DNA of 64,000 nt from a virus (Duplodnaviria; Heunggongvirae; Uroviricota; Caudoviricetes), in IMG/VR virus record IMGVR_UViG_3300042895_002216, one strand, 5' to 3'. Position 1 is the stretch's first letter. Each line of letters opens with the position of its first letter. Position numbers and translations under genes: made by a program. Positions 651 through 62,992 of this stretch are shown here, one piece after another. A model generated the notes under the pieces. That model was given only the letters and a program-made list of their open reading frames with translations, was not told the DNA's origin and made no database searches.

Positions 651-692
651 CTCTTGCTAATAAATAATCCTGTAAAAAAATACTAAATTACA

Positions 693-1145
693 ATGGATGA
701 ATTTTTAGCAATGATTAAATTATTTGCAGGCGGATACGAGCCAATCGGCTGGATGTACTGCGATGGTCGAGCGTTATCAATTAGAAACTACACTGCTCTG
801 TATGCAGTAATCGGAACAAATTTCGGCGGAGACGGTGTCAATACCTTCTGTTTGCCTGACCTTAGAGGTCGAGTTGCAGTTGGTGCAGGTTCAGGTAACG
901 GGCTGACTCCAGTTAATACTGGCGAAAAGGGTGGAACTGAAGCAAATGTTCTAACTCAACACCATGTTAACATTAATACCTTAACTAAAAATTTCGATAT
1001 CAAAGAAACTGGTAGAGATGGAGTTCCTAGTGTTGTAACAAGCGTAACTGCTTCAGAAGAATGGGCACCAATTAATAATCGCCAACCTTACCTAGGTATA
1101 AACTACATTATTTGCGTAGAAGGAGTATTTCCATCTAGAAGCTAA
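693..1145 (+). CDS. phage tail collar domain protein (T4 gp12-like Collar/MdpB domain)
   Basis: KLFAGGYEPIGWMYCDGRALSIRNYTALYAVIGTNFGGDGVNTFCLPDLRGRVAVGAG matches the conserved phage tail-collar fibre domain signature. An ATAAATAAT motif lies about 30 nt upstream. Confidence 0.7.
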   Translation: MDEFLAMIKLFAGGYEPIGWMYCDGRALSIRNYTALYAVIGTNFGGDGVNTFCLPDLRGRVAVGAGSGNGLTPVNTGEKGGTEANVLTQHHVNINTLTKNFDIKETGRDGVPSVVTSVTASEEWAPINNRQPYLGINYIICVEGVFPSRS

Positions 1146-1158
1146 TATAACTAGAGCA

Positions 1159-1461
1159 ATGAAGCACATTAAACTATTTGAAGAGATTAACCGAGAAGAC
1201 GAAGACGAATTATCTGCATTGGGCTTTGACACAGACGACCTTAAACTTAGACGATTTGCTCAACAAGTTTCGGACGAGATCCTTGACGAATACGATTATG
1301 CGGTAGACTCAGGCCGAATATCTGCTAGAGAATATTCCCCCGAAGAAATGTACAAGTACGTAAAGGAACTTTGTTCAGACAACGATATCACAGCAGACGA
1401 AGTAATTGCTGACTTTGAATGGCGCTCGATTACTTGGGAACTTGGGCTTGGAAACATATAA
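1159..1461 (+). CDS. leader-family small acidic protein (MKHIKLFEE N-terminus)
   Basis: 100-aa ORF starting MKHIKLFEEINREDEDELSALGFD. The N-terminus is shared with more than 15 paralogous leaders elsewhere in the window. Confidence 0.6.
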   Translation: MKHIKLFEEINREDEDELSALGFDTDDLKLRRFAQQVSDEILDEYDYAVDSGRISAREYSPEEMYKYVKELCSDNDITADEVIADFEWRSITWELGLGNI

Positions 1462-1481
1462 ACCTTATAATTTAACAACTA

Positions 1482-1877
1482 ATGAAAATTGAAGTATCTA
1501 CTGGCGAGATCTTAGATAAACTTTCTATCCTAGAAATTAAGCTTGAGCATATCTTAGACCCAGTTAAACGAAATAACGTGTTACAGGAATATGTAATACT
1601 GGTAGCAGCCGCCGAAGAAATATATGATGCAACTCTTGAAACAGAAGAGCTTAGGGTTCTTTATTTAGATTTACTAAATATTAATAAAACACTATGGAAC
1701 ATCGAAGATCAAATCAGAGAATGCGAACGAGATGAAAGTTTCGGGTCTGATTTTATTGAACTTGCAAGGTCTGTGTACTACACAAACGATGACAGAGCTG
1801 AGGTAAAGAAACAGATTAATGCGTTAACCGGTTCTAAATTAGTTGAAGAAAAATCTTACCAAGACTATCAGAACTAA
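1482..1877 (+). CDS. hypothetical protein
   Basis: 131-aa ORF in tight spacing after the previous gene. Followed by the hairpin terminator at 1936-1966. Confidence 0.5.
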   Translation: MKIEVSTGEILDKLSILEIKLEHILDPVKRNNVLQEYVILVAAAEEIYDATLETEELRVLYLDLLNINKTLWNIEDQIRECERDESFGSDFIELARSVYYTNDDRAEVKKQINALTGSKLVEEKSYQDYQN

Positions 1878-1935
1878 CAAGCGTTTGTGATCGATTAAAT
1901 CAACAGCAACCTTTACGATTTCATTCGTATTGCTA

Positions 1936-1966
1936 ATGGGCCTCAGGAAACTGTAGCCCATTTTTT
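1936..1966 (+). terminator. intrinsic terminator
   Basis: ATGGGC-ctcaggaaactgta-GCCCAT hairpin followed by TTTTTT. Confidence 0.6.
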
Positions 1967-2150
1967 AGTATAATAATCCTAACAGCAAGCCCTCTGCTTA
2001 GCGCTGAGTAAGGATCGAAGACGGGGATAGCCTCTTGACCGTTAGGTTAGAGTACTTCGGTACTCTTTAGTCAATGCGCACTACGCCCACCGAATCGTGT
2101 GTCGGCACAGTTTGTACGTTCTGGGGGTAATACAAAAACGTACATTTTTA

Positions 2151-2250
2151 GTCAGGAGTCCATTGGTTGGAAGCACCTCCCCAAGGTTGAGTAGCGGTAA
2201 GGCCGACTCTTTATGGCAAAGCGGTAACAGGTTCGAATCCTGTCCTGACT
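2151..2250 (+). ncRNA. atypical tRNA-like element, identity unresolved
   Basis: 5' GTCAGGA pairs with 3' TCCTGAC, and a canonical T-arm (CAGGTTCGAATCCTG) is present. About 71 nt of non-cloverleaf sequence lies between them. Acceptor and T-arm are identical to the element at 53354-53472. Upstream (2020-2150) are strong hairpins including a GAGTAC-UUCG-GTACTC tetraloop. Confidence 0.4.
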
Positions 2251-2801: not shown

Positions 2802-2923
2802 ATTATGTTAGATATGGAAAATTACCCAAAATGGTTGAATAACCTAATCTATTTCTTTGCAGGAATAGGCTTCTCTCAAATCTTGATCAGAGTATTAGAT
2901 TGGTACGTAGGATAAATAATCCT

Positions 2924-3505
2924 ATGAAGCATATTAAACTTTTTGAGAACTGGTTTCAGGACGTAGAAGATAACGTTGATCGTAAGAGATTTGCGCCTGA
3001 GCTAGAACCTGAAGAGACTAAACCTGCTGAGACTGAAGAAGACCCGGCTGAACCTGAAGAGGAGAAGCCCGATACTCAGGAAGAACCTAAAGCAGAAGAG
3101 CCTACTGAGCCAGAGACATATTCCGGTTGGTTAAAGACCCAAGCTGGCGTAAGCGAAGTTGTTGAAGCTGAAGAAGGTACAGACAATTCAAATGGTTGGG
3201 TTCGCTTGTCAAATGGAGTATCCATTCAATGGGAAATCGATATGCGAGACTATCCGTTCCTTTCCGTAAGTTATATGCTTGATAAAAAAGTAATTCAGTT
3301 AGCTGATAATCCAGCCGGCGATCTTGCTCGACAATTCTACAAAGAGGGCCGTGAATACATTCCTAGAGAATGGGAGTCTGTTGTAATTAAAATAGGTGCA
3401 GGTGTTCCAGCCTTGATAAAGGATGCAATTGCTTCAAACAAGCGACGAATGAAGGAGCAGGACGAGATCTTATCAGGTCAAATCGTTGCAGCTTTTAGCA
3501 AATAA
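2924..3505 (+). CDS. leader-family protein with acidic Pro/Glu-rich linker
   Basis: Starts MKHIKLFENW, followed by a PEEEKPDTQEEPKAEEPTEPE low-complexity stretch and a C-terminal globular part. ATAAATAAT at 2912-2920. Confidence 0.6.
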   Translation: MKHIKLFENWFQDVEDNVDRKRFAPELEPEETKPAETEEDPAEPEEEKPDTQEEPKAEEPTEPETYSGWLKTQAGVSEVVEAEEGTDNSNGWVRLSNGVSIQWEIDMRDYPFLSVSYMLDKKVIQLADNPAGDLARQFYKEGREYIPREWESVVIKIGAGVPALIKDAIASNKRRMKEQDEILSGQIVAAFSK

Positions 3506-3513
3506 ATAACTCT

Positions 3514-3828: not shown

Positions 3829-3851
3829 TTACTACTATATAAAATTAAAGC

Positions 3852-3878
3852 AAAGGCTTCCACATGGAAGCCTTTGTT
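3852..3878 (+). terminator. intrinsic terminator
   Basis: AAAGGCTTCC-acat-GGAAGCCTTTG hairpin. It lies inside the annotated 5' end of the 3818 ORF, which argues for the downstream start at 3893. Confidence 0.5.
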
Positions 3879-3892
3879 GGTATAGTAGAATA

Positions 3893-4417
3893 ATGGAATA
3901 CGAACAACTCATTCAAGGCTGTATTGAAAACAATAGAGAATACCAAAAGACCCTGTTCGATAAGTTTGCTGGTAAATTCATGACTATCGCAAAGAGGTAC
4001 ATGAAAGACCCTATGTTAGCCGAAGACGTATTGATGGAAGGATTTTATAAAATATACAAGAATCTTGGGAAATTCAAAGGAGAAGGTTCCTTTGAAGGGT
4101 GGATGAGACGAATCATCGTGAATACTGCGCTTACTAAACTCAAGCAGAACAAGCACGAGTTTAATGAGTGTAACTTAGTAACAGCGGAGGCAGTCAGTAT
4201 AGATCCAACTTACTATGAAACAGCATCAGCCGAAGAGTTAATGTCTCTGATTAGCACTCTTCCGATTGGATATCGTACCGTTTTTAACATGTACGTAATT
4301 GACGGATTTTCCCATAGGGAAATTGCAAAGGAACTTAACATACAAGAAGCCTCAAGTAGATCACAGCTATTTAAGGCAAAGGATTTTTTACAAAAACGAA
4401 TAAACCCAAATACATGA
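3893..4417 (+). CDS. ECF-type sigma-70 family RNA polymerase sigma factor
   Basis: Region-2-like segment (FDKFAGKFMTIAKRYMKDPMLAEDVLMEGFYKIYKNLGKFKGEGSFEGWMRRIIVNTA) and region-4-like HTH (YRTVFNMYVIDGFSHREIAKELNIQEASSRSQLFKAKDFLQKRI). Start set after the terminator. Confidence 0.8.
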   Translation: MEYEQLIQGCIENNREYQKTLFDKFAGKFMTIAKRYMKDPMLAEDVLMEGFYKIYKNLGKFKGEGSFEGWMRRIIVNTALTKLKQNKHEFNECNLVTAEAVSIDPTYYETASAEELMSLISTLPIGYRTVFNMYVIDGFSHREIAKELNIQEASSRSQLFKAKDFLQKRINPNT

Positions 4418-4506: not shown

Positions 4507-4540
4507 CCCACGGATAAATAACCAAAAGAATTAATCTTTA

Positions 4541-4765
4541 ATGCAACATATTAAATTATTCGAACAATTTATAGCAGAATTCACAATGACTGAGCCGATT
4601 GTTAAACCTGCGCCAGTTAAAGAGCCTAGCACTCGACCTGCAACTAGACCCAAACCTAGTCCAATTCCTAGCAAACAACCGTTTAAACAACCTGAGCCAG
4701 CTAAGGCTCAAGCTGAGGATGTAATTGCTCGCCTAAAAAGTCTAGAATCAAATGAAGAGCTTTAA
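4541..4765 (+). CDS. leader-family Pro-rich small protein
   Basis: MQHIKLFEQF followed by a P/K/A-rich repeat region. ATAAATAAC at 4514-4522. Confidence 0.55.
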   Translation: MQHIKLFEQFIAEFTMTEPIVKPAPVKEPSTRPATRPKPSPIPSKQPFKQPEPAKAQAEDVIARLKSLESNEEL

Positions 4766-6110
4766 AACATTCTTAAATGAAGCTGACATTCGTCAGAACC
4801 CAGCAATAACTCCAGAATACTTAGGATCTCTTGATAAACGAGCAGAACAGAGCGCTCGTGAAGTTGAACAGAGACACGGTCGAGATATGGGTAGCCTAAT
4901 GAGAGCTGTCCGTGAAGTACAGATGTTACAACGCGGTAAAGAACGCCAGCTTGAAGAGTTAACTACTTCAGTAATCCTAAGCCAGTACGGTTCAATTCTT
5001 GGAGAAACTGAGTTAGACATTAAGATTCCAAACGATCCTCGTGAAATGAAAGCGAAGATGAAGGAGACTGATGACGACGATCAAGAAGATCAGGACAAAC
5101 CCAATTTCAAAGAGATTGAGGATGAGGATACTAAAACAGCAATCAATAAACGTAAGATCCTAAACATGATCGCTCAAGGCGAAGCCATTAATTCAAAGAA
5201 GATGTTAATGGGCGATGAGAACATGGAAGGTCTAACTCAATTATTTGGAGAGGCTAATGCCCGTAAAATGGTAGAGCTGCTAGTTACGATTACTGATATT
5301 TGTAATGCTAGAGACTGGAGAATACCTGAAGAGGTTGGAGCAAAAATGATTGAGCAAGGAGATTCCCTTGCCGGTATTTCAAAAATTGAATGGAAACCTA
5401 AATCTAAAAAGGATAACGATGATGATCAAGGTCAAGAAGACGGAGAGTCTGAAGAAGAGACAGTTGACGAAACGACTGTTCCTACCTTAGTTATTAGAGG
5501 AATGGACCAAGCAATGTTATTCCATGAATCTATTAAAGCAATTTGGGGACTGATTAATCAAGGAGGTCTTGCTAATCTAGACGATGAGACTATCCGAAAA
5601 GTGTTCATGAATACTGATACTGCCGCTGACGAAGTACAGGATCTTAAACGTGCTAAATTAACTGCAGCTGATCTTAGAGATTTTATCCAATCTTTCGAAG
5701 AAGTATTTGATATTGAAAACGGTAGAGAATACGTATGGGGTAAAATGATTGACTCAACAGTCGTATCTGATTCTGACTTCTTGGACCTAATGAAATTAAT
5801 ATTCACAGCAGCTCCGTTATACAGAACAGTTGGCGAACAGGAACCTCAATACACAGAGTCTGAAATCGCTGCTGCTAAAGAATCTTTTCCTAAAGCCAAA
5901 GCCATAGTAAATAACTTGATCCGTCTAATTAAACAGGAACTTGCTGATTGGGAAGACTCTCAATCTGATTCTAGCTACGATGAGCCTGACTTTACTATGC
6001 CAGCCAACGATAGAGAACTTGATCAAGTTGATATTCAGAACATGATTGATGCAGCTCTAGATAATAGAGACTTCGCTGAAGTTGAAAGGTTAAGTAACTT
6101 ACTTAAATAA
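4752..6110 (+). CDS. leader-family large acidic protein
   Basis: MKSFKTFLNEADIR N-terminus (K-x-F-x-x-F-x-NEA variant of the leader). 452 aa with D/E-rich segments. 14-nt overlap with the upstream gene. Confidence 0.6.
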   Translation: MKSFKTFLNEADIRQNPAITPEYLGSLDKRAEQSAREVEQRHGRDMGSLMRAVREVQMLQRGKERQLEELTTSVILSQYGSILGETELDIKIPNDPREMKAKMKETDDDDQEDQDKPNFKEIEDEDTKTAINKRKILNMIAQGEAINSKKMLMGDENMEGLTQLFGEANARKMVELLVTITDICNARDWRIPEEVGAKMIEQGDSLAGISKIEWKPKSKKDNDDDQGQEDGESEEETVDETTVPTLVIRGMDQAMLFHESIKAIWGLINQGGLANLDDETIRKVFMNTDTAADEVQDLKRAKLTAADLRDFIQSFEEVFDIENGREYVWGKMIDSTVVSDSDFLDLMKLIFTAAPLYRTVGEQEPQYTESEIAAAKESFPKAKAIVNNLIRLIKQELADWEDSQSDSSYDEPDFTMPANDRELDQVDIQNMIDAALDNRDFAEVERLSNLLK

Positions 6111-6113
6111 GTA

Positions 6114-6959
6114 ATGAAGCATCTTAAGATATTTGAAAGTTGGGTCAACGAATCCCTTACTGCTGATCAAATCGCTGATAAAATTCAAATAGCCGTTGCT
6201 GGTTCAGGAACTGCAGAGGGTGATTTAGTATCAGCAATCAAGTCTATTCCCGATGCTGCATCCATGGTTCGTGTAAACAAAGCACTTAAAACCGGGTTCG
6301 ATACAAAGAGCTGGGATTACGCAAGTGTTGGCGATGCAATTACCGGAGAACTTGGATCCTTTGATCAAGATTACTTGGATCAAATCAACACTCACATAAA
6401 GAATATTAGAGCTGAGAAGTACTTAGGATCTTTCGTTGCTCCTCCTCCACCTGAAGATACAGTATTAAAGGTTATTGAGCCTAGGGTAATCCAACATGAA
6501 GGCTACAAACCAAAGAAGTACATAGACTCTAAAGGAAATCCAACAGTCGGTGTAGGATTCAATCTAAACCGCTCTGACTCAACGTCAATGCTTAGGTCAG
6601 TTGGTGCAAATCCAATAAAGATAAAGTCAGGCCAGTCTGCATTAACCGATCAGCAGATTAAAGCTCTTCTGCATACTGATCTTCAAGCCGCAAAGTCTTT
6701 AGCTAAAACTTTAGTATCAGATAATGGGAAAGTCAGCATAGCTAAAGTTTGGCCAAGCTTGCCACAATCAGTACAAGGAGTCTTAATTGAAATGGTATTT
6801 AATTTAGGAGCTAAAGGCCTATCTGAGTTTAACACGTTTCTACTTCACATAGCTTCAAAGAATTTCAAGGCTGCATCCAAAGAGATGTTAAATTCTTCAT
6901 GGGCAAAACAGGTCGGTAATCGAGCAATAACTCTATCTAACATTGTTAAATCTGCATAA
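6114..6959 (+). CDS. leader-family protein with GH24 (T4-lysozyme-like) domain
   Basis: MKHLKIFESWVNE leader. HEGYKPKKYIDSKGNPTVGVGFNL carries the Glu/Asp/Thr catalytic arrangement of T4-type lysozyme. Confidence 0.75.
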   Translation: MKHLKIFESWVNESLTADQIADKIQIAVAGSGTAEGDLVSAIKSIPDAASMVRVNKALKTGFDTKSWDYASVGDAITGELGSFDQDYLDQINTHIKNIRAEKYLGSFVAPPPPEDTVLKVIEPRVIQHEGYKPKKYIDSKGNPTVGVGFNLNRSDSTSMLRSVGANPIKIKSGQSALTDQQIKALLHTDLQAAKSLAKTLVSDNGKVSIAKVWPSLPQSVQGVLIEMVFNLGAKGLSEFNTFLLHIASKNFKAASKEMLNSSWAKQVGNRAITLSNIVKSA

Positions 6960-6980
6960 CTTTAGTATATTATTACTAAG

Positions 6981-7403
6981 ATGATAGCAGAAAACCGAAA
7001 AGCCCGACACGAATACACATTTTTAGAGACATGGACCGCTGGGATCTCCTTAACTGGATCAGAGGTCAAGTCAATTAAGGCGGGTAACCTTGACTTTACT
7101 GGATCCTGGTGCGAACTTCGGTCAGGTGAATGCTTCTGTCGAGAACTGTACATAAAAGAATCAACCTCAGCATACAGTCACCAAGGTAAACGAGAGAGGA
7201 AGCTACTCTTAACTAAAAAGGAACTAAAGAAACTAAATAAACTGATGGACAGGGGCCTCACAATCGTTCCAGTAAAGATCTTCGTTAACTCGTCAGGTTT
7301 AATTAAGATTGCGATTGCTCTAGCCAAAGGAAAGAAGGATTGGGATAAGCGACATGTTATTAAAGAACGAGATCTCAGCCGAGCTTTAACCTCTGAATAC
7401 TAG
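6981..7403 (+). CDS. smpB: SsrA-binding protein SmpB
   Basis: NRKARHEYTFLETWTAGISLTGSEVKSIKAGNLDF ... RKLLLTKKELKKL ... IALAKGKKDWDKRHVIKERD aligns motif-by-motif with bacterial SmpB. The TAGTATATTAT motif at 6963-6973 sits immediately upstream, so the mRNA is probably leaderless. Confidence 0.85.
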   Translation: MIAENRKARHEYTFLETWTAGISLTGSEVKSIKAGNLDFTGSWCELRSGECFCRELYIKESTSAYSHQGKRERKLLLTKKELKKLNKLMDRGLTIVPVKIFVNSSGLIKIAIALAKGKKDWDKRHVIKERDLSRALTSEY

Positions 7404-7432
7404 AATAAATAACCCTGAAATAATTACATTAA

Positions 7433-10849: not shown

Positions 10850-10873
10850 GACTTATTTAGTATAATAGTCTTA

Positions 10874-11690: not shown

Positions 11691-11900
11691 ATGGCAAAAA
11701 CCGTAGTAGTAAAAGAACAGTTCAGAACAAACGAACTAAGCCTAAACCCAGGTGGGTACACAGTTACCGTAGTATATTCAAACGGCGACAAGCGAGTTTA
11801 TAATAACGTAAAGAATCCCAAAGCCTACATTGGATCAATATCGAAAGCACAAGATGTTTCTCAAGCCCTAGTTGACGGAGAACTTTATTGGTCTCGATAA
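11691..11900 (+). CDS. hypothetical protein
   Basis: Start moved to MAKTVVVKEQ to avoid overlapping the previous gene. Confidence 0.4.
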   Translation: MAKTVVVKEQFRTNELSLNPGGYTVTVVYSNGDKRVYNNVKNPKAYIGSISKAQDVSQALVDGELYWSR

Positions 11901-11916
11901 ATAACTAGAAAGCACT

Positions 11917-12723: not shown

Positions 12724-12747
12724 GAATTTGTCTAATAAATAACTTAG

Positions 12748-13893: not shown

Positions 13894-14001
13894 TCTTATC
13901 ACTTACTGTAGTATAATAACAACAAGCGTAAATACTATTGGGCTTGACAGAAATATCTATGTCTTAAAACTTTTAGGACTTTTACAAATACAATAGACAA
14001 T

Positions 14002-17576: not shown

Positions 17577-17598
17577 TCAATTAAAGTACAATAACTAA

Positions 17599-20105: not shown

Positions 20106-20657
20106 ATGTTAAAATCATTTAGCCAATTCGTAACTGGATTATTTGAAAAGAAAGGAGACGCTCATAGTTATGGATGTGCAATGGTCTATTTCAATTTTCC
20201 AACAATGCCTGAACTGCATTCAAAAATAGATGAAGCAGATATCTACACAGAAGAGGGCGATCGTTCATACGGTCTTGAGGATGAACCTCATACAACTCTT
20301 TTATATGGACTTCATTCGGCAGATATTAATGACGCTAAGGTATTAGAGATATGTAAATCTAAACCAATCGGTCAACTGACTCTACATAATGCATCTCTAT
20401 TTGAGAATGCTAAATACGATGTACTTAAGTTTGATGTAGAAAATCCAGTGTTGGCTGAGATTAATGCAGAACTTAGTAAGTTACCTCACACTACTGATTT
20501 CCCAGACTACCATCCACATGCAACAATCGGGTACCTAAAGCCTGGAACCGGCAAGAAATACGTTGACTTATTTAATGGTAATCGGCATGAAGTCGCTGCT
20601 CATAAAATAGTTTATTCAAAACCTGACGACAGTCGAATCGAAGAAGAATGGAATTAA
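20106..20657 (+). CDS. 2H phosphoesterase superfamily protein (LigT-like) with degenerate leader
   Basis: Two H-x-[TS]-x motifs (EPHTTLLYG and HPHATIGYL) spaced as in 2H cyclic phosphodiesterases / 2'-5' RNA ligases. The N-terminus MLKSFSQFVTGLFEKKG resembles the leader family. Confidence 0.6.
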   Translation: MLKSFSQFVTGLFEKKGDAHSYGCAMVYFNFPTMPELHSKIDEADIYTEEGDRSYGLEDEPHTTLLYGLHSADINDAKVLEICKSKPIGQLTLHNASLFENAKYDVLKFDVENPVLAEINAELSKLPHTTDFPDYHPHATIGYLKPGTGKKYVDLFNGNRHEVAAHKIVYSKPDDSRIEEEWN

Positions 20658-22944: not shown

Positions 22945-22957
22945 CTTATAAAATTTA

Positions 22958-23239: not shown

Positions 23240-23259
23240 ATTTAATTTGTTTTTTTTAT

Positions 23260-24438
23260 TTATTGTGTATAGCCAGTCCGTAACAGATAAAAGCTAGTAG
23301 TTCCTCCATTAGTTGGTGTTGAAATAATCATTGATTGAACTCCTGGTATACTGGAGCGTAGATCACTTGTCCCGGAATTAATAGTTGTCCATTGAGCTGG
23401 CGTAAATATCCGATACGACGGATATGCATTTATCCAATTTGGAAATCTACCTGAAATTTTACCGAATATGCAATAGGAATCCGTTACATTAAACCGAGTA
23501 TCTTGATTAACGTCCATTGTATAATACAATTTAGAGCTTGGCATCACCGAGTATAATAACATTTGAATAGGGTATTGAGCAGCAGTTGATATTGGATTAC
23601 TAATAGTCAGATTTTCTAATCTAATTTGGAAATCATGGGACGCGTCATCTAAATTAGGTACCATTGAATATAGACCCAACGAATTAGTGTAATATGTTCC
23701 CTTTATGCTGAATGTAGTTTCCGGTGAAGCTGGTGTAAATCTAACTGAATAATTAGTTGCGCTCCATTGAGATGCATTCTTTCCACCGACTGGAACAACC
23801 GTTGACGAAGAAGTTGATATTAGACCGGCGGTCGCGTTATTACTACCACATAAAGGTTTTGAGGCATAATTTATATCTATTAAATTCGACGTTTCATATA
23901 GAATGAACTGAAATGTGTGTAGATTTGTTCTACACCCATAATGCGGAACTGCATTAAAAGAGACAGTCAACGATCTATTGGGCGATGTTCCTGATGTTAC
24001 GTATCTGATGTTAGCTGATCCAGGAAATAAGTCCTCCCAATCCGCTAAAATTGCGTTTAATGGAGACCCTGCATTTGGAATAAAGGCTGCAGTATATCCA
24101 GTTGTTTGGCCCGAGCTAAACCCGATCCATCCATTTGATCCAACGTAAAATTGAGTATACGTATTTCCAAAGTAGGTAAAACTAAATCCTATATTAAATG
24201 GTCCATGTGTAGCATCGTCCGATGATGGAATTACGGTACCGGTTGTATAACTAGGAGAAGTCGGATAAGTAGGAAAAGTTACTTCATATTGAACAATCCT
24301 TTTGCCGTATAGCAAGACTGGTATATTTTGTAAGCCTTGACCATTAGCTCCATAAACATATCCTGAATAAGTAAATGGTTGAGCATACACCGACCCTATA
24401 ATCAATGTAGCAATTAGTGTGATGATAAACTTTCTCAT
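23260..24438 (-). CDS. secreted protein
   Basis: Signal peptide MRKFIITLIATLIIGSVYAQ. 392 aa, rich in T/S/N/Y. Confidence 0.5.
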   Translation of the reverse strand: MRKFIITLIATLIIGSVYAQPFTYSGYVYGANGQGLQNIPVLLYGKRIVQYEVTFPTYPTSPSYTTGTVIPSSDDATHGPFNIGFSFTYFGNTYTQFYVGSNGWIGFSSGQTTGYTAAFIPNAGSPLNAILADWEDLFPGSANIRYVTSGTSPNRSLTVSFNAVPHYGCRTNLHTFQFILYETSNLIDINYASKPLCGSNNATAGLISTSSSTVVPVGGKNASQWSATNYSVRFTPASPETTFSIKGTYYTNSLGLYSMVPNLDDASHDFQIRLENLTISNPISTAAQYPIQMLLYSVMPSSKLYYTMDVNQDTRFNVTDSYCIFGKISGRFPNWINAYPSYRIFTPAQWTTINSGTSDLRSSIPGVQSMIISTPTNGGTTSFYLLRTGYTQ

Positions 24439-26105: not shown

Positions 26106-26119
26106 TTGCGTTTCATATT

Positions 26120-26839: not shown

Positions 26840-26841
26840 GA

Positions 26842-27607: not shown

Positions 27608-27614
27608 TGTTTGT

Positions 27615-30380: not shown

Positions 30381-30432
30381 TTGAAAAGGGTTTTTTGTTA
30401 TTTATCAATTACTGACCTAAAAAAGAGTCATT

Positions 30433-31083: not shown

Positions 31084-31124
31084 AATATTTTCCTTTGTAC
31101 TTTTTATTATTTAACTAACAGGCT

Positions 31125-31526
31125 ATGCTTAAAACTATGATAAATAACCTTACCGTGAGAGAATACATTAATAAGAAGAGTGCGAATCTTCTTTTGGGAT
31201 GGTGTATTGAAAAGTATGGCCCAAGTAAGTACAACAATCTCAAAACGTTGAAGATTCAGATTGATCCGAACCATATACATTTCGGAATGTATGAACCTTG
31301 TCAAAACACAATCATTTTAAATCCAAAAAGACACAGGTCGTTACTTTCTTGGTGCAGCACAGTAATCCATGAATACACCCATTTCAAACAGGACATGGAA
31401 AAATACGGAGAATACCGAACAAGTTACGAAAAACATCCATACGAGATAACGTGTAATAAGAGAGGATATCGCGATCAACTTGAGGCCAGAAGATGGCTTA
31501 TTCGGAAACTCTGCACAAATTCTTAG
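31125..31526 (+). CDS. hypothetical protein with HExxH motif
   Basis: WCSTVIHEYTHF is a zinc-peptidase-like motif in a 133-aa ORF. Confidence 0.45.
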   Translation: MLKTMINNLTVREYINKKSANLLLGWCIEKYGPSKYNNLKTLKIQIDPNHIHFGMYEPCQNTIILNPKRHRSLLSWCSTVIHEYTHFKQDMEKYGEYRTSYEKHPYEITCNKRGYRDQLEARRWLIRKLCTNS

Positions 31527-31567
31527 TATAATAATTCTCTAAATTAAAAACAAAAATAACCAGAAAC

Positions 31568-32371: not shown

Positions 32372-33054
32372 TGGAAATTACATTTATAAGTGATACACAT
32401 TGGATTGTATCTGATCCAGTTAATACAGAAGACCTAAATGATCTTCTGCCTGGAGGTCCTATCTTGGTCCACGCAGGTGATGTATCTGGGCGTGGAACTG
32501 AGCGTGAAATTAGAGTATTCCTTAAATGGTTTAGTTCACAACCCTATATGCATAAGATCCTAATTGCTGGAAACCACGACTTCTTTTTTGAGGTAGCAAA
32601 ACCAGAGGAGGTTCAGGCTCTGCTTGCTGAGTATCCTGGAATTACCTACTTAAATGATAGTGGCGTAACGATTGAGGGTATTAAATTCTGGGGAAGTCCA
32701 GTAACTCCATTCTTTCATAATTGGGCATTTAATCGATATGAAAATGAAATAGGTCCACATTGGGATCTTATTCCGGAAGGAATTGATGTTCTGATAACGC
32801 ACGGGCCTCCTCATGGAATCTTGGATAAAACTATCAGAGAAGGTTGGAGCGTTGGTTGTAAAAGTCTAAAGGCTAAGGTTGATCAAATTAAACCCCAAGT
32901 TCATGTATTCGGCCACATACACGAAGAGATGGGCCAAGTAGAAATAGGCGGTACTACATTTATTAATGCGTCAGTGGTCGATGAACGATATCGACTATGG
33001 CATAATCGCCCGCCAGTTATTAACGTTGAACCAAGATCAGAAAATTTAGTATAA
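32371..33054 (+). CDS. calcineurin-like metallophosphoesterase
   Basis: GDVSGRG, GNHDFF, THGPPHG and GHIHE metal-ligand motifs. Confidence 0.7.
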   Translation: MEITFISDTHWIVSDPVNTEDLNDLLPGGPILVHAGDVSGRGTEREIRVFLKWFSSQPYMHKILIAGNHDFFFEVAKPEEVQALLAEYPGITYLNDSGVTIEGIKFWGSPVTPFFHNWAFNRYENEIGPHWDLIPEGIDVLITHGPPHGILDKTIREGWSVGCKSLKAKVDQIKPQVHVFGHIHEEMGQVEIGGTTFINASVVDERYRLWHNRPPVINVEPRSENLV

Positions 33055-33061
33055 TAACTCT

Positions 33062-34564: not shown

Positions 34565-34821
34565 TGGCAAAAGGCTCTATATTAAATGCACTAAAGAACG
34601 AGGCGGACATGAAACGTCTCGTTCTTGAGTTTACTGAGAAATTAGAACATGACCCGTACCAACCGGGGCTAGTTCATCCGGAAGTCTATCCGGACGATGT
34701 TCAGGAAGTACTTGAAGATCTACTGTGGATTAGGGGATTCGATGAAGCGACTATCAGAGTTAGAAAGAATCCAGATGGAGTATCTGTATCAGTAGAAGTT
34801 TTGGGCAGAACTAAGGGATAA
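34564..34821 (+). CDS. hypothetical protein
   Basis: 85 aa. ATGA-coupled. Confidence 0.45.
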   Translation: MAKGSILNALKNEADMKRLVLEFTEKLEHDPYQPGLVHPEVYPDDVQEVLEDLLWIRGFDEATIRVRKNPDGVSVSVEVLGRTKG

Positions 34822-34842
34822 ATAATAAAAATAAGATCCCTA

Positions 34843-35394
34843 ATGAAACTTAAGAGATTTTCACAATTTGTAAAAGAGAGCTTGATAACAGAATCTTCGT
34901 CAGTTATTGAAGTTGAAGAAAATATATTCTTAATAGACGAAATAATCTACATAATTTGGCTTGTTACACTAGACGTATCTTTCGATTATGAGCCTGACGA
35001 TAGCAGTGTCGGATTCGTTGGCGGCTATTCAGTTGATGATGTTGACTTTGATGGAGTAGACGGAGTGTATAAAGTAACTGATCCTTCAGTAATTTCGCAG
35101 GTTAAAGCCATGCTAGATTCCCCTGAAGCTGAAGAGTTAAAAAGCATGGGATTTGAAGGAGCTGATGAATATGCAGCAATTGGCGATTTAATATACGATG
35201 CAGAGCAAGAAGAAATTACAGGAGAAGAGCTCAAGGACTTCATTAATAAATTCAAAGCTCTTTACGATTCAAATACTCTAGTCGATTTAACTGGTACTTT
35301 CAAAAAAAGAACTGACTCTGCTCTCGATAGAGCGGTTGAGGATTTTGAACCTGATGAGCCTGACTACGATGATTACGACGATGATCGTTATTAA
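34843..35394 (+). CDS. leader-family acidic protein
   Basis: MKLKRFSQFVKESL leader, C-terminal D/E/Y-rich tail. ATAAATAAT at 34818-34826. Confidence 0.6.
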   Translation: MKLKRFSQFVKESLITESSSVIEVEENIFLIDEIIYIIWLVTLDVSFDYEPDDSSVGFVGGYSVDDVDFDGVDGVYKVTDPSVISQVKAMLDSPEAEELKSMGFEGADEYAAIGDLIYDAEQEEITGEELKDFINKFKALYDSNTLVDLTGTFKKRTDSALDRAVEDFEPDEPDYDDYDDDRY

Positions 35395-35420
35395 TAAATA
35401 AACAAAAATTACTTTTTAAA

Positions 35421-35984: not shown

Positions 35985-36016
35985 TTTTTAGTAAAGGGAA
36001 ACCTTTTTTAAAAAGT

Positions 36017-36040
36017 TGGTATAATAACTAGATAAATAAC
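36017..36040 (+). promoter_or_regulatory. tandem promoter-like motifs (TTGGTATAATAAC + ATAAATAAC) ahead of the tRNA island
   Basis: Both recurrent motif classes occur back-to-back about 100 nt upstream of a short leader ORF and the first tRNA. Confidence 0.5.
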
Positions 36041-47486: not shown

Positions 47487-47872
47487 TGGAATTAACGGGA
47501 CCCTCTAAACTAGTAGTCGCATCCAGTCCAATACACGGACTTGGAGTATTCGCAACGCAATCTATTAGCCCAGGCGAGATTATTGAAGAATGTCATTTCA
47601 TAACATTCGATGCGACATCAGATGATCCTATTTTTAATGATTATCGATTCATAGTCGGCCGTTCTGAGAAATTAGGCTGCGTAGAGTATGGCGTTCTTCT
47701 TGGATTCGGAGGAATCTACAATCACAGTGAAACTCCAAATATAAATTGGAGACATGATACTGAAAAGAATTGTTTTACGTTCTTTGCACTAGTCGATATT
47801 AATCCAGGAGACGAATTGTGCTCGTATTACGGAGGGCCTGAATATTGGAAATCAATTGGTATGGAAATTTAG
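47486..47872 (+). CDS. SET-domain protein (putative protein-lysine methyltransferase)
   Basis: GLGVFATQSISPGEIIEEC ... YNHSETPNINW ... INPGDELCSYYG match the SET-domain core motifs (GxG, NHS..PN, ELxxxY) in a minimal ~128-aa protein. Confidence 0.65.
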   Translation: MELTGPSKLVVASSPIHGLGVFATQSISPGEIIEECHFITFDATSDDPIFNDYRFIVGRSEKLGCVEYGVLLGFGGIYNHSETPNINWRHDTEKNCFTFFALVDINPGDELCSYYGGPEYWKSIGMEI

Positions 47873-47946
47873 TATAATAACAAAGTAGTTAGCTAATCGG
47901 GCTAATGTAATCTCTATATTTTAATAATTAATAAAAACAAAAAAAA

Positions 47947-49432: not shown

Positions 49433-49461
49433 ATTTTGGTATAATAGTAAAAAGAAATAAC

Positions 49462-53027: not shown

Positions 53028-53119
53028 CGAGAATTGCTGAAAATAAAAAATGACCTCAGGAAATTATTAATAGTTATTGGGTATAATAACTTTATAACAA
53101 AACAAACGTTCTTTAAGTT

Positions 53120-53353: not shown

Positions 53354-53472
53354 GTCAGGTGGCGGAATTGGTAGACGCTATGTGGTGCGGAACTCGCTTC
53401 GTTCACCACTCCCTTAGCGGGGAAAACAAAGGTAAGAGATGTGACCATGCAGGTTCGAATCCTGTCCTGACT
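53354..53472 (+). ncRNA. atypical 119-nt tRNA-like gene (possible intron-containing or insertion-bearing tRNA)
   Basis: Acceptor GTCAGGT/TCCTGAC. Leu-like D-arm (GGCGGAATTGGTAGACGC). Canonical T-arm. The central region is a ~45-nt extended hairpin (GCTATGTGGTG...CACCACTCCCTTAGC) instead of a normal anticodon arm. Confidence 0.4.
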
Positions 53473-53666: not shown

Positions 53667-53680
53667 AGTATATTAGACTT

Positions 53681-57581: not shown

Positions 57582-58912
57582 TGAGACTTAAACGATTTAC
57601 ACAATTCGTTAATGAAAATACTGATGATGCTGAAGAATTAGCAGCATTAGGTTTTAATTCAAAGATTGACACGGATGAAATTCAAGGATTAATGGCCGAA
57701 TACAACCCAGAGGAGAAGACCGACACGACATTAGGTTTCGATTTGGGATTTGATATGACAGCTGATGATTTAGGACTTGATCCAGAAAGAGCAGAGGCTG
57801 CTGAATTAGATAGCGTGTTCCTTGTTCAGTACTATGTTGATTTCGACTTTGAGACAATGAAATCTAAAGTACAAGTGGCAGTCTTAAATTCTGGGATTGA
57901 TTTTGACGGTGCAGGTAATGCGTATGAAGTTGATTTTAAACTGGATTCAGAAAATCACGATTCTCAAGGAATCGCTGATGAGTTAACTCAGATTTTGCAG
58001 CGAATTGAATACGAAGGCATGTTTGTAGACATGGCAGTCGATATAGTAAATGACATAATCGATAGACGTCTTGGAGAAGTATCAGAAAAGAAGAAACTTA
58101 AATGGCATGATTCTGATGAGCCTAACACAAAAGGAAAATTCATAATTGAGAACTTATCTGATGAAGAAGCTGCAGAACTAAGAGCAATGGGTTTTGGTGG
58201 AGTTGACACTGATGCAATCGCAGAACTAGTCAATGGAGCAACTGCAGAAGATCAAATCGTTATTGTTTCAGGCCAGTTCAATCAATCTATAGATGATTAC
58301 GGAATAGATTCATCCGAATATCCGGATATAGAAAGAGACGTATGGACTGATTTTGAAGTCAGAATAAACTTTATCGATGAAACTGTTAAGTCGTCAGTTA
58401 GTGTCGCACAAAAAGATATCGGACTTTACGAAGATGCTGAACTTGAAGACTATGAATGGTCTGACCTATTCCAAAATGGAGATCCAGTTTCAATGAAGTC
58501 TAATGAGATAGCTGAAGATATTGAACTCTTTATGAGTGCCGTAACTGGTTTCGAAGACTCGCTTGGAATGTACGACAAAATTCAAGATCTTTTAAATAAG
58601 GCAATTGAGGAACAGTATCACAGATGGGATGACGAAGAAGATGATGAAGCTGATGAAGATGAAATTTCAGAAAAGAAAAAACTTAAATGGCACGATTCTG
58701 ATGCACCTGATGCAAATGGAAAATTCAGAGACCTTGGAGTTAATAAATTAGCGGATTGGTTAATCAGAACAAGAGGTGGTAACATGCAAAAGATTACTGG
58801 ATCGCTAAATCAACAAATTAATTTTAACAAGCGAAAAAATCCAAGTTATGCCAAGAAAATGGAGTCGACTCGGGAAGCAGTTAAAAGAAAATTAGCAAAA
58901 AGAAAAGAATAA
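57581..58912 (+). CDS. leader-family large acidic protein
   Basis: MRLKRFTQFVNEN leader. 443 aa, extremely D/E-rich with an internal duplicated EKKKLKWHDSD motif. Confidence 0.6.
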   Translation: MRLKRFTQFVNENTDDAEELAALGFNSKIDTDEIQGLMAEYNPEEKTDTTLGFDLGFDMTADDLGLDPERAEAAELDSVFLVQYYVDFDFETMKSKVQVAVLNSGIDFDGAGNAYEVDFKLDSENHDSQGIADELTQILQRIEYEGMFVDMAVDIVNDIIDRRLGEVSEKKKLKWHDSDEPNTKGKFIIENLSDEEAAELRAMGFGGVDTDAIAELVNGATAEDQIVIVSGQFNQSIDDYGIDSSEYPDIERDVWTDFEVRINFIDETVKSSVSVAQKDIGLYEDAELEDYEWSDLFQNGDPVSMKSNEIAEDIELFMSAVTGFEDSLGMYDKIQDLLNKAIEEQYHRWDDEEDDEADEDEISEKKKLKWHDSDAPDANGKFRDLGVNKLADWLIRTRGGNMQKITGSLNQQINFNKRKNPSYAKKMESTREAVKRKLAKRKE

Positions 58913-58949
58913 ATAAAACCAATTAGAAATATTGTAGTATATTATTAAC

Positions 58950-59161: not shown

Positions 59162-59245
59162 GGAAGAGTAATTCAGCTGGCGCTGGACCTAGTCTTGAAA
59201 ACTAGTGGTACCTTCGGGTATGGGGATCGATACCTCACTCTTCCG
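59162..59245 (+). tRNA. tRNA-Ser (TGA), class II, unusual T-loop
   Basis: Acceptor GGAAGAG/CTCTTCC. Anticodon arm CTAGT-CTTGAAA-ACTAG. Variable hairpin TACC-TTCG-GGTA. T-loop ATCGATA is non-canonical. Confidence 0.65.
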
Positions 59246-59598: not shown

Positions 59599-59599
59599 T

Positions 59600-59673: not shown

Positions 59674-59697
59674 CAAATTATTTAGTACAATATAGCT

Positions 59698-61174: not shown

Positions 61175-61313
61175 TCTTCTCGAGAAACTTTCTAAATTTT
61201 CTGAGTTAAATATTACTGGAACATAGAGCCTCGCTCTGTTCGTCTAGGGTTTACGAGCCCTTGAGTAATCGCGAAAGGTTACAAATAGATGAGCAAAAAA
61301 TAACATAACTACT

Positions 61314-62120
61314 ATGTACCAACAAACAATCACAACTGGTGGTTCAACTGCAGTATTTAATACTTTCAGCAGCCAACCCCAACCTACTGCCCACATAACA
61401 AAGGGCAGGGGAAGACTAAAGACCTACGGTCAGTCAGTCTATCTAAAAGACAGTTCACATTTTGAAATTGAACTGCACAATCCAAAAACAACACCAGTTC
61501 TTGCAAAAATCTGGATAAATGGGAAACTGTTATCGAATGCAGGAATTATCGTGAAACCAGGCCAGAGAGTCTATCTTGAAAGATTTATGGATGTTGCTAA
61601 AAAATTCAAGTTTGAAACTTACGACGTTGATACGTCAACTGGAACTGTTCGAGCAATCGCCGATAACGGCAAGGTCGAAGTACAGTTCTATGATGAATCG
61701 TCTTATCAGCTAAACGGCAATTCAGGTACGAATATTTGGCAACAGCCATTTACGTACACGACTCACCAGTGGCCAGGTCATACGCTAACTTCTAATATTG
61801 GAGGTTCAGCTAATGCATTTTACTGCGCAAGTTCGCTAGGTCCACAAGGTTCAAACGGCCCTCAAGGTCCAGCCGGAATACCGGGGTCGATGGAAACGGG
61901 TCGAATTGAAAAGGGCGAAAGCTCTAGTCAAAACTTCGAATATGCAGACGGCCAATACAATTCATGGAGCTGTACAACCGTCAGGTGGCAGATTCTACCG
62001 GAAAGTAAAAAACCTGTTGAAATGGGAGAAATTCGCTCTTATTGCACAGGTTGCGGTACTCGCCACAAAAAATCAAGTTGGAAATTCTGCCCTAATTGCG
62101 GAACCTCCATAACTGAGTAA
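61314..62120 (+). CDS. hypothetical protein with Gly-X-Y repeat and C-terminal zinc ribbon
   Basis: GPQGSNGPQGPAGIPG collagen-like stretch. C-terminal CTGCGTRHKKSSWKFCPNCG zinc ribbon. Confidence 0.5.
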   Translation: MYQQTITTGGSTAVFNTFSSQPQPTAHITKGRGRLKTYGQSVYLKDSSHFEIELHNPKTTPVLAKIWINGKLLSNAGIIVKPGQRVYLERFMDVAKKFKFETYDVDTSTGTVRAIADNGKVEVQFYDESSYQLNGNSGTNIWQQPFTYTTHQWPGHTLTSNIGGSANAFYCASSLGPQGSNGPQGPAGIPGSMETGRIEKGESSSQNFEYADGQYNSWSCTTVRWQILPESKKPVEMGEIRSYCTGCGTRHKKSSWKFCPNCGTSITE

Positions 62121-62188
62121 CATTAGTCCTGAGCGGGGCTCTAAATGTTCCAGTTATACAGATAAATAAACTCAAATTATTCAAACAA

Positions 62189-62485
62189 ATGCATAATAAT
62201 AAAATTTTAAGTTTCGAAGAATTCGTTCAACAAGGAACAGGCGAAATGGGTCAGGAAATGGGCCACGAAATGGACCATACTGCTGAAATGCCACAGGGCG
62301 GAGAAGATCAAGCACTATTACCAGCACCAGCTGAAGAAGTAGAAGGCGGAGAAACTGAACACAACGTTCCAAACCACATGCAAGATGATTCAGAAGAAGG
62401 AACTTCTGACAATGAACCTAATATTGAAGTTGAAACATCAGCTAACGATATTGAAGCACACACCGACGAAAACGGCGGATTCTAA
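62189..62485 (+). CDS. small acidic protein with leader-like N-terminus
   Basis: MHNNKILSFEEFVQQG. ATAAATAAAC at 62162-62171. Confidence 0.45.
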   Translation: MHNNKILSFEEFVQQGTGEMGQEMGHEMDHTAEMPQGGEDQALLPAPAEEVEGGETEHNVPNHMQDDSEEGTSDNEPNIEVETSANDIEAHTDENGGF

Positions 62486-62506
62486 AAAACTTTTCTTGCT
62501 AATCAA

Positions 62507-62899
62507 ATGAGCGGTAGAACTAGAAATAACCAAGATGTCGATACTATGATGAACGACATACTTGATGCGCTCGACGTAATCAAGGCCAAATTGCCAAATG
62601 GCGAACTTAAGATAATTCAAGAGAGAATGGAAGGTTTAGAATCTTCCCAAGAGGACATGCACGAAGATCTGAGACAGATCAAAAAGCAGCTGCTTGATCC
62701 TGAAGACGGTATTGTCGTTAGAGTAAATAAGAACACTGAATTTCGTAAAAGGAAGGAAGAGGAGGCTAGAATTTATCAAGTAATATTGGATGAACATAAG
62801 GAGCTTATGTCATGGAAATCTACTGTAACTAAAATACTATGGATTATAGTAACGGCAGTTGTCGGAATTGCAGTGGGTATGATTTTTAAGTCAAATTAA
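62507..62899 (+). CDS. C-terminally TM-anchored protein
   Basis: Coiled N-terminal part and a C-terminal TM helix ILWIIVTAVVGIAVGMIF. Confidence 0.5.
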   Translation: MSGRTRNNQDVDTMMNDILDALDVIKAKLPNGELKIIQERMEGLESSQEDMHEDLRQIKKQLLDPEDGIVVRVNKNTEFRKRKEEEARIYQVILDEHKELMSWKSTVTKILWIIVTAVVGIAVGMIFKSN

Positions 62900-62922
62900 C
62901 GATTCATCATTTTTTTTTTTTG

Positions 62923-62949
62923 AAGTCTCACTTTTGTGGGACTTTTTTT
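62923..62949 (+). terminator. intrinsic terminator
   Basis: AAGTCTCAC-tttt-GTGGGACTTTTTTTG. TAGTATATTAT follows at 62958-62968. Confidence 0.6.
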
Positions 62950-62992
62950 GTTTTTATTAGTATATTATAAGTAATAAACAAAAAATATACTT

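Follow-up and report, generated by a model that had tools for sequence, protein, structure and literature searches.

The question raised by this locus is whether two short motifs that recur ahead of its genes are promoters and, if so, what reads them. The locus is a 64,000-nt stretch of DNA (IMG/VR record IMGVR_UViG_3300042895_002216, referred to as the window) from the genome of an uncultured jumbo phage, with a G+C content of 39%. A sequence-only reading of the window had described two classes of promoter-like motif, designated here as motif A and motif B. Both motifs are real: they occur far above chance, are strand-specific and lie in intergenic DNA. The explanation that we favor, with a probability of about 0.65, is that A and B are phage promoters of two classes, at which the core RNA polymerase of the host works with different sigma-type factors. 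Enrichment, orientation, conserved footprints, spacing, position at operon starts and placement ahead of tRNA arrays all agree with two such classes; promoter activity, temporal class and transcription starts are inferred. A literature search returned no promoter analysis for this phage group. The coordinates of all sites are collected in Table 1.

Form and enrichment of motifs A and B

Motif A has the consensus ttT(A/G)GTATA(A/T)TA(a) and, based on its sequence, can be classified as a -10-type, extended -10-like element that lacks a general -35 element. Motif B has the consensus nATAAATAA and is also without a -35 element. When k-mers were ranked by enrichment over a second-order Markov model of the window's own noncoding DNA, TAGTATA and ATAAATAA came out as the top two. 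TAGTATA is found 11 times in the 7.3 kb of noncoding DNA (1.2 expected, P = 6e-8) and ATAAATAA 15 times (1.4 expected, P = 3e-11); each occurs only twice in the 54.7 kb of coding DNA. Extended forms are similarly overrepresented, with 9 matches to AGTATAWTAR (0.84 expected from dinucleotide shuffles) and 14 matches to ATAAATAAY (3.08 expected from shuffles). Both motifs are thus enriched in noncoding relative to coding DNA once AT bias is controlled, which is the comparison on which the sequence-only reading had made its proposal depend. A and B are strictly co-oriented with the genes: exact RGTATAWTA is present in noncoding DNA 14 times in the sense and 0 times in the antisense direction, and ATAAATAA has 19 sense and 0 antisense matches anywhere in the window.

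All 14 coordinates originally given for motif B are exact. Five further B sites can be added to that list, at 135, 58909, 23263(-) and 30405(-) and, as a variant, at 31113(-). For motif A, nine of the 12 listed sites and four of the five variants were placed exactly, and three sites were off by 8-10 nt: 13899 corresponds to 13909-13919, 53088 to 53079-53089 and 41134 to 41124-41134. Two A sites (31525 and 36772) had been missed, as had three A-like sites with one mismatch and the same 6-nt spacing to a start codon (17585, 46370 and 59684).

Neither the window sites nor the pooled sites from related phages carry information upstream of motif A or B that would indicate a conserved -35 element. 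There is no TTGACA signal at 17 +/- 1 bp upstream of motif A, and bipartite sigma-70-type sites occur at chance level (51 versus 53 and 48 versus 49). Among 257 A sites from the phage family, position -8 is A in 67%, -7 is T in 75% and -6 is A in 74%; T is found at -15 in 61%, and -14 is either A (69%) or G (31%). These sites were collected with the pattern RGTATA, so G-13 is preset in this sample, and its conservation is instead shown by the k-mer enrichment in the window. The sequence AAC[CT]T is concentrated at -18/-19 relative to the motif start, in approximately 15% of 263 family A sites. About the same share of family sites, including three to four in the window, has an AAAC(C/T)TT box 16-17 bp upstream. 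AAACYTT-N-TACAAT was considered as a separate third motif and rejected, as it is not independently enriched in upstream regions that lack A and B. It is real at a few conserved promoters (topoisomerase II, tRNA array 1 and the structured RNA) and is treated here as a bipartite subclass of A.

Conservation in related phages

Three IMG/VR scans recovered approximately 120 related loci on contigs of up to 253 kb. In the closest relatives (357 kb, 9.3% noncoding), the noncoding part holds 76 of 120 A matches and 83 of 121 B matches, and both motifs are likewise concentrated in noncoding DNA in two other sets of loci. Individual sites are retained as footprints. Motif A stays at a constant distance ahead of orthologs of gene 10874 (7/8 distinct upstream regions), gene 33062 (3/3), gene 39300 (7/7) and gene 53681 (6/7). 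The proteins encoded by the 10874 orthologs are merely 30-61% identical despite the kept motif. Motif B is kept ahead of orthologs of gene 12748 (12/12 distinct upstream regions, at 5-6 nt), the endolysin gene 29556 (8/8), gene 35421 (7/7, at 21 nt), gene 34843 (3/3) and gene 7433 (3/3). The flanks of kept A and B sites diverge among the related contigs, and the DNA upstream of kept A sites is unrelated among orthologs, consisting of tRNA 3' ends, terminators or coding DNA. At gene 39300, for example, motif A directly follows unrelated tRNA 3' ends or terminators in the orthologs.

These comparisons bear on the possibility that motif B is a functionless 5' flank copied along with duplicated genes. 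Approximately 17 paralogous genes in the window encode proteins with the N-terminal motif MKHIKLFE(E/S)(F/W) or MKLKRFTQFV, which contains L/I/V-x-E (the "MKHIKLFEEF" leader family), and 10 of the 18 window B sites precede members of this family, whose 5' coding ends are also alike. Nevertheless, the conservation is limited to the 8-mer, with varying flanks and varying distance to the ATG. Motif B is also found before endolysin, PA14, tail-collar and glycosyltransferase genes and before tRNA arrays, several leader-family genes inside operons lack it, and it is enriched in distant phages irrespective of the leader family. Passive copying is consequently the least probable of the explanations considered here.

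Spacing to start codons and position in operons

For 504 A sites and 359 B sites of the family (redundant ones removed), spacing was taken as the distance between the last base of the 8-mer and the following ATG. The A-to-ATG distance has a peak at 6-9 nt (65 sites) and a broad shoulder at 15-35 nt, and the B-to-ATG distance has peaks at 3-6 nt (46 sites) and 16-22 nt (approximately 103 sites). Reverse-complement controls are flat. Within the window, an ATG follows after 6-9 nt at 9 of 22 A or A-like sites and after 4-5 nt at 5 of 18 B sites, in keeping with the leaderless geometry noted by the sequence-only reading. Because a -10-type element usually lies 5-7 nt from the start site, the short spacings would place the predicted +1 on the A of the ATG. 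The short spacing modes therefore fit leaderless mRNAs, as predicted from distance. Such mRNAs are known for lambda cI and for many actinobacterial, Deinococcus and archaeal genes; here they are read from the spacing of A (6-9 nt) and B (3-6 nt).

The motifs mark operon starts and not each gene. Of the 35 genes that follow a gap of less than 10 nt, only 3 have a motif ahead of them, versus 6 of the 7 genes with a gap of 25-59 nt. Motifs also precede tRNA arrays, at 36018/36032, 36772, 53080 and 58909/58936. Finally, an A-like element precedes a structured leader RNA of approximately 100 nt (61216-61316), which lies upstream of gene 61314-62120 and is present in 10 of 10 related sequences aligned. 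This RNA has 32 predicted pairs, five of them with compensatory changes, and its 5' segment ACAUA pairs with UAUGU, which holds the start codon. Rfam has no match for it, and it is a candidate for a riboswitch-like element or for one that controls translation. Conservation of the RNA sets in 3-4 nt past the A-like element, as would be expected if transcription started there. In orthologs of this promoter, the element is replaced by exact motif A (relative L121) or by AGTATAAATA (relative L122).

The closeness of the motifs to start codons (4-35 nt, with sharp spacing modes) could also be explained if they were A/U-rich ribosome-binding or Kozak-like signals in a host that does not use Shine-Dalgarno sequences, and Bacteroidota translation does favor adenines at -3, -6, -12 and -13 (PMC6847099). 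The presence of both motifs before tRNA arrays and of an A-like element before the noncoding structured RNA argues against a translation signal. Furthermore, the 35 tightly packed genes must all be translated, yet only the three mentioned above have a motif. The two discrete spacing modes of B are not expected of such a signal, and a preference for A-richness does not account for the invariant T and G positions. A role in translation is thus very unlikely.

A fixed distance to start codons, strand specificity and AU-richness would also be compatible with endoribonuclease processing sites or transcript-boundary signals at which polycistronic RNAs are trimmed before start codons, and some of the motifs overlap upstream stop codons. 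Motif A, however, comes close to a perfect -10 hexamer and has a T-rich tract upstream of it, and several sites directly follow intrinsic terminators, which leaves no upstream transcript to be processed. The earlier statement that A typically sits right after a terminator was too strong (a strict rule gives 4 of 19 A sites, inspection by eye approximately six). The onset of conservation just past the A-like element at the structured RNA likewise resembles a transcription start. Processing is considered slightly less probable still than a translation signal.

Genes behind the two classes

Motif A lies ahead of tRNA arrays and of genes encoding an ECF-type (extracytoplasmic function) sigma factor, SmpB, ClpP, topoisomerase II, a tRNA nucleotidyltransferase-like protein, an SPFH protein and small proteins of no known function. 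Motif B lies ahead of genes encoding an endolysin, a tail-collar-domain protein, a PA14 protein and approximately ten members of the leader family, as well as a glycosyltransferase gene; the major structural module lies outside of the window. One leader-family member (6114-6959) has a virion-lysozyme-like domain, and the L-x-E of the family presumably resembles the T4 capsid-targeting sequences that are cleaved by the prohead protease. The gene content of the two classes would fit a division into early or middle (A) and late (B) transcription.

Motif B is most similar to T4-type late promoters. Late promoters of the form TATAAATA (T4, KVP40) or NATAAATA (T4-like cyanophages) work with g55, g33 and g45 (the sliding clamp), and are in tandem with another promoter class on some RB49 and cyanophage genes (PMC2984593). 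As in these systems, motif B is an 8-bp A/T-rich -10-region element without a -35 element, is oriented with the genes, precedes genes with predicted lysis or virion-associated functions and occurs in tandem with the other class. The sequence-only reading had assigned it the T4 late-promoter core and a ninth base of C or T. The core ATAAATA is indeed the same and is invariant at 18 window and 185 family sites, but the full TATAAATA with a leading T is present at only 3 of the 18 window sites, and the ninth base is A at 35394, 60248 and 62162. Because the leading base is so rarely T, motif B is assigned to the NATAAATA form, which it equals, and is one base off TATAAATA. It differs from T4-type late promoters in this non-T first base, in a conserved extra A (ATAAATAA), in its many sites 3-6 nt from an ATG (predicted to be leaderless) and in Bacteroidota being the predicted host phylum. 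The spacing modes of B would be compatible with the replication-coupled late timing and the start approximately 6 nt downstream that characterize T4-type late promoters.

Phage relationships and predicted host

Since metagenomic contigs as long as 271,408 bp encode proteins identical to those of the window, the genome must be approximately 271 kb or more in size. A megablast search against GenBank phages identified no close relative, with matches to tRNAs only. The medium subunit of topoisomerase II shares 50-58% identity with those of the uncultured "huge phages" LR745206, LR756502, LR756504 and LR756500 (462-642 kb) and 37% with that of Chryseobacterium phage MA9V-1. The window ClpP is nearest to those of LR745206 and the Prevotella Lak megaphages. 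The phage is related to the Bacteroidota "Mahaphage" and Lak megaphages.

The host is most likely a member of the Bacteroidota that has a type IX secretion system (T9SS) and lacks Shine-Dalgarno sequences. Three lines of evidence point to this assignment. A secreted protein (27615-29537(-)) has a C-terminal T9SS type A sorting domain, with a score above the curated cutoff. Shine-Dalgarno-like words are rarer in noncoding sense DNA (8.2/kb) than in coding sense DNA (12.5/kb). The nearest cellular homologues of the phage ECF-type sigma factor (45-51% identity) are found in Cytophagales, Cyclobacterium, Saprospiraceae and Polaribacter.

Relation of motif A to the host-type promoter

Bacteroidetes promoters have the form TTTG/TANNTTTG. 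The primary sigma factor of this phylum needs T-8, T-6 and G-5 of the -7 element TAnnTTTG, and E. coli-type promoters are not used; host mRNAs are mostly leadered, with leaders of more than 10 nt on 87% of transcripts in the one species studied (PMC6847099). Neither the A nor the B consensus matches TAnnTTTG, as the sequence-only reading had stated. The window has four sense noncoding TAnnTTTG matches, none convincingly placed, and the element is barely enriched, if at all, in the related family loci. Loci of this family have 2-7 A sites and 0-1 TAnnTTTG sites, whereas more distant relatives (Mahaphage segments, Chryseobacterium phage MA9V-1 and the sigma-bearing phages L131-L134 and L097) have 5-11 TAnnTTTG sites per locus. 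These more distant relatives keep ATAAATA, yet have TAnnTTTG in place of motif A, which suggests that A fills a "first-tier" niche. The huge phages LR745206, LR756502, LR756504 and LR756500 do not share motif A and have the enriched upstream words TATATTTG and AATATATA; they were therefore used as outgroups and not as support.

The sigma gene illustrates this exchange. In the window and in relatives L007 and L008 it lies behind motif A, and in L131-L135 and L097 it lies behind AGTATATTTG, AGTACATTTG or TTATATTTG, 4-5 nt from the ATG. Host-type -7 elements 4-5 nt from the sigma ATG were noted at L131 9986, at L134 8565 and 9986 and in L097 (e.g., tttAGTATATTTGcaaatATG). Leaderless geometry would thus be common to these phages despite the different promoter type.

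Two known kinds of -10 element can be compared with A. With the Bacteroidota primary promoter (-33 TTTG/-7 TAnnTTTG, read by sigma-ABfr), it shares its genomic niche in related phages and T-12, A-11 and T-7, which are common to all sigma-70-family -10 elements; some relatives have a hybrid, tttAGTATATTTG. It differs in having (A/T)TA(A/G) in place of the TTTG half. With sigma-70 -10 and extended -10 promoters (e.g., T4 early promoters), A shares the TATAAT hexamer, GTATA(A/T)T, the T-rich upstream tract and a position upstream of early-type genes that include tRNAs, and TGGTATAAT is present at approximately 31% of A sites. It differs in the lack of a TTGACA -35 element, in having A/G rather than G at -14 and in a conserved A past the hexamer; moreover, the primary sigma of the predicted host does not use TATAAT.

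Motif A might also be an early promoter read by the host primary sigma, either a TATAAT-tolerant sigma-A or that of a host outside of the classical Bacteroidota, in which case no phage sigma would be needed. The bases that A keeps at -12, -11 and -7 are consistent with this, as is its occupation of the niche (sigma gene, topoisomerase and tRNA genes) that the host-type element has in distant relatives. A sigma gene behind motif A is what would be expected of a first-tier, host-read promoter and poses no bootstrapping problem, and the family loci show no enrichment of any host-type motif. On the other side are the three markers of a Bacteroidota host given above and the sequence of A itself, which has A/T, A and A/G at the -8, -6 and -5 positions where the Bacteroidota primary sigma requires T, T and G. 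We regard direct reading by the host sigma as unlikely. Given the requirement of Bacteroidota sigma-A for TAnnTTTG (PMC6847099), we lean instead towards a phage-encoded or phage-modified specificity at motif A.

Candidate sigma and late-transcription factors

The window encodes an ECF-type sigma factor (3893-4417, Sigma70_r2 and r4_2 domains) that is a candidate reader of one of the motif classes. ECF (group 4) promoters have an AAC-containing -35 element and are frequently autoregulated. The subset of A sites with AAAC(C/T)TT 16-17 bp upstream could resemble them in this respect, and the sigma gene is itself behind motif A. Motif A differs from ECF promoters in that most sites lack a -35 element and in that its -10 is TATAAT-like and not CGT-like. 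Two cellular Bacteroidota homologues (L128 2950-2990 and L129 2950-2985) have GCAAC-N17-CATCT(A/C) upstream of the sigma gene, a probable promoter for autoregulation. The idea that the ECF sigma has motif A for its cognate promoter was set aside as unsupported, since the cellular homologues share this different sequence, which is missing in the window. The phage homologues in L131-L135 and L097 lie behind TAnnTTTG, again a different promoter type from that of the window sigma gene. No sigma-factor relatives were found in the IMG/VR scan of related loci.

For motif B, we lean towards a gp55-like or other phage factor encoded outside of the window. Bacteroidetes megaphages belong to a T4-like jumbo group that has no RNA polymerase and encodes sigma factors and gp33 (PMC7824862). 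A six-sequence gp55 hidden Markov model had no match among the 8,398 open reading frames (ORFs) of the window and related loci. The lone phmmer match in searches for late factors, to a phosphoribosyltransferase (45085-46014), was judged to be false. A tblastn search of GenBank phages with T4 gp55 was dominated by T4-like phages and is uninformative on megaphages.

Several points weigh against two phage promoter classes read by separate factors. The sole sigma in the window is of the ECF type, a kind that normally requires a -35 element, and the GCAAC-N17-CATCT pattern that its cellular homologues appear to use is absent from the window. If the phage sigma reads A, the A promoter of its own gene creates a bootstrapping problem. 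Searches with T4 gp55, gp33 and gp45 (phmmer) gave no true match in the window or in approximately 2 Mb of related loci. Motif B is near start codons and A-rich, like the translation-enhancing contexts of Bacteroidota. Sites 43633 (0/7 orthologs), 56985 (0/14 orthologs) and 13910 are not kept in orthologs. Lastly, at one orthologous promoter the core of one motif is exchanged for that of the other, and the boundary between the two classes may therefore be blurred.

Coordinates and other features of the window

Table 1. Motif sites and associated genes in the window.
Element	Form	Position	Strand	Context
B	tATAAATAA	135..142	+	4 nt to ATG 147
B		660..667	+	25 nt to tail-collar-domain gene 693
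A	AGTATAATA	1967..1975	+	followed by ~358 nt without ORF, then RNase H gene 2334
B		2912..2919	+	4 nt to ATG of leader-family gene 2924
B		3502..3509	+	overlaps upstream stop codon; 4 nt to leader-family gene 3514
A variant	GGTATAGTA	3879..3887	+	just past hairpin 3851-3876; 6 nt to ATG of ECF-type sigma gene
ECF-type sigma gene		3893..4417	+	domains given in text
B		4514..4521	+	19 nt to leader-family operon 4541-6959 (including virion-lysozyme-like protein)
A	AGTATATTA	6964..6972	+	9 nt ahead of SmpB gene 6981
B		7405..7412	+	20 nt to leader-family gene 7433
A	AGTATAATA	10859..10867	+	7 nt to gene 10874
B		11897..11904	+	12 nt to glycosyltransferase gene 11917; kept in 4/9 orthologs
B		12735..12742	+	5 nt to leader-family gene 12748
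A	AGTATAATA	13910..13918	+	84 nt to topoisomerase II large-subunit gene 14002
A-like, bipartite	AAACTTTT-N13-ATACAATA	13967..13994	+	7 nt to ATG 14002; in most ortholog upstream regions shown
A-like	AGTACAATA	17585..17593	+	6 nt to ATG 17599 (sulfate permease family)
B		23256..23263	-	16 nt to gene 22958-23239(-)
B		30398..30405	-	past hairpin; 17 nt to endolysin gene 29556-30380(-) (PG_binding_1 + Glyco_hydro_19)
B-like	TAAATAAT	31106..31113	-	22 nt to gene 30481-31083(-), lysis-related PHROG match
A	AGTATAATA	31525..31533	+	35 nt to gene 31568
A	AGTATAATA	33048..33056	+	6 nt to ATG 33062
B		34818..34825	+	17 nt to leader-family gene 34843
B		35394..35401	+	19 nt to leader-family gene 35421
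Tandem promoter region	AAACCTT (-35-like), A GGTATAATA at 36018, B ATAAATAA at 36032	35999..36039	+	ahead of tRNA array 1; arrangement kept in relatives
A variant	GGTATAGTA	36772..36780	+	within tRNA array, 49 nt to tRNA-Gln
A variant	AGTATAGTA	39267..39275	+	25 nt to gene 39300
B		40211..40218	+	past terminator; 21 nt to PA14-domain gene 40240; kept in 5/10 orthologs
A	GGTATATTA	41125..41133	+	6 nt to ClpP gene 41139; kept in closer relatives (10/54 distinct upstream regions)
A	GGTATAATA	42416..42424	+	27 nt to ORF 42451
A	AGTATAATA	43633..43641	+	past terminator hairpin; 15 nt to gene 43656
A-like	GGTAAATTA	46370..46378	+	past hairpin and T-run; 6 nt to ATG 46384
A	AGTATAATA	47871..47879	+	68 nt to SPFH/Band 7 gene 47947
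A	GGTATAATA	49438..49446	+	past terminator; 16 nt to tRNA nucleotidyltransferase-like gene 49462; motif A 7-8 nt from ATG in 4/7 orthologs
A	GGTATAATA	53080..53088	+	32 nt to tRNA-Leu 53120
A	AGTATATTA	53667..53675	+	past terminator; 6 nt to ATG 53681
B	tATAAATAA	56985..56992	+	4 nt to leader-family gene 56997
B then A	B at 58909-58916, A AGTATATTA at 58936-58944	58909..58944	+	ahead of tRNA array 2
A-like	AGTACAATA	59684..59692	+	6 nt to ATG 59698
B	tATAAATAA	60248..60255	+	22 nt to TTG-start leader-family ORF 60278
A-like, bipartite	AAACTTT-N14-AGTTAAATA	61183..61212	+	structured leader RNA starts 3-4 nt downstream
B		62162..62169	+	19 nt to gene 62189
A	AGTATATTA	62959..62967	+	past terminator; 26 nt to gene 62993
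Leader-family gene starts		1159, 2924, 3514, 4541, 4752, 6114, 7433, 8277, 9413, 12748, 20106, 34843, 35421, 56997, 57581, 60278, 62189

The genes of the window are mostly on the plus strand, with a single minus-strand block at 21.3-31.1 kb. This block includes genes for signal-peptide proteins (21282-30380(-)), among them one that combines a cohesin domain with a T9SS type A sorting domain, and the endolysin gene. The proteins of the 21282-30380 block are predicted to be phage-encoded cargo for the host type IX secretion system. Two possible anti-defense genes were noted: 20106-20657, which has a weak Acb1/2'-5' RNA ligase-like match as well as a leader-family N-terminus, and 33866-34564, which encodes a Tad6-family protein.

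The window has 26 tRNA genes predicted by ARAGORN and one additional Rfam call. A tRNA-Sec-like Rfam call at 59162-59244(+) (47.9 bits versus a gathering score of 47) is absent from the ARAGORN output and is probably a long-arm tRNA of the second tRNA cluster. At 53357-53471(+) there is an unannotated tRNA-like gene of approximately 115 nt, in which the acceptor stem, the D arm and the T arm (GGTTCGAATCC) are well formed; the gene has an internal insertion of approximately 40 nt and was missed by both ARAGORN and Rfam. A match to freshwater-1 RNA (RF02979) lies inside a tRNA array at 37371-37432(+) (67.3 bits versus a gathering score of 72, E-value: 2e-13), and a literature search returned nothing on this RNA. 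The 358 nt without an ORF that directly follow the A site at 1967 (1976-2333) may encode an RNA. No transfer-messenger RNA was identified in the window by ARAGORN or Rfam, though SmpB is encoded (6981-7403).

Proposed model and significance

The proposed model for transcription of the phage is as follows. Motif A would drive a non-structural program comprising the tRNA arrays and the genes for the ECF-type sigma, SmpB, ClpP, topoisomerase II and tRNA nucleotidyltransferase. Motif B, as the counterpart of the T4 and cyanophage late promoter ((T/N)ATAAATA), would drive lysis genes, tail-associated genes and the leader-family genes, whose products are probably packaged in the virion. Tandem A and B promoters before the tRNA arrays would keep these arrays expressed throughout infection. 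In roughly one third of cases, transcription would start at the A of the ATG and give a leaderless mRNA; most other mRNAs would have leaders of 12-17 nt (B) or 10-30 nt (A).

A broader version of this model can be offered tentatively, and we consider it possible but doubtful. This widespread aquatic family of Bacteroidota jumbo phages may have exchanged host-type TAnnTTTG early promoters for an orthogonal TATAAT-type code of its own, read by a phage-supplied specificity (an ECF-type sigma that is bootstrapped or delivered with the DNA, or another factor). With approximately one third of transcription units leaderless, although mRNAs of the host phylum mostly have leaders, such phages would run a two-tier program largely independent of the host sigma and without an RNA polymerase of their own.

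Relative to known kinds of promoter, the novelty would be the combination of -10 elements that are not of the host type with frequent leaderless geometry in a family of Bacteroidota phages. For uncultured aquatic Bacteroidota jumbo phages and megaphages, no promoter code is known to have been published. The motifs permit operons to be delimited, temporal classes to be predicted and gene starts, including leaderless ones, to be corrected from sequence, and can be used to annotate hundreds of related metagenomic contigs. They are also candidate orthogonal regulatory parts for Bacteroidota. The contrast between TAnnTTTG in some of these phages and a TATAAT-type element in others bears on how a phage without an RNA polymerase redirects the transcription of its Bacteroidota host.

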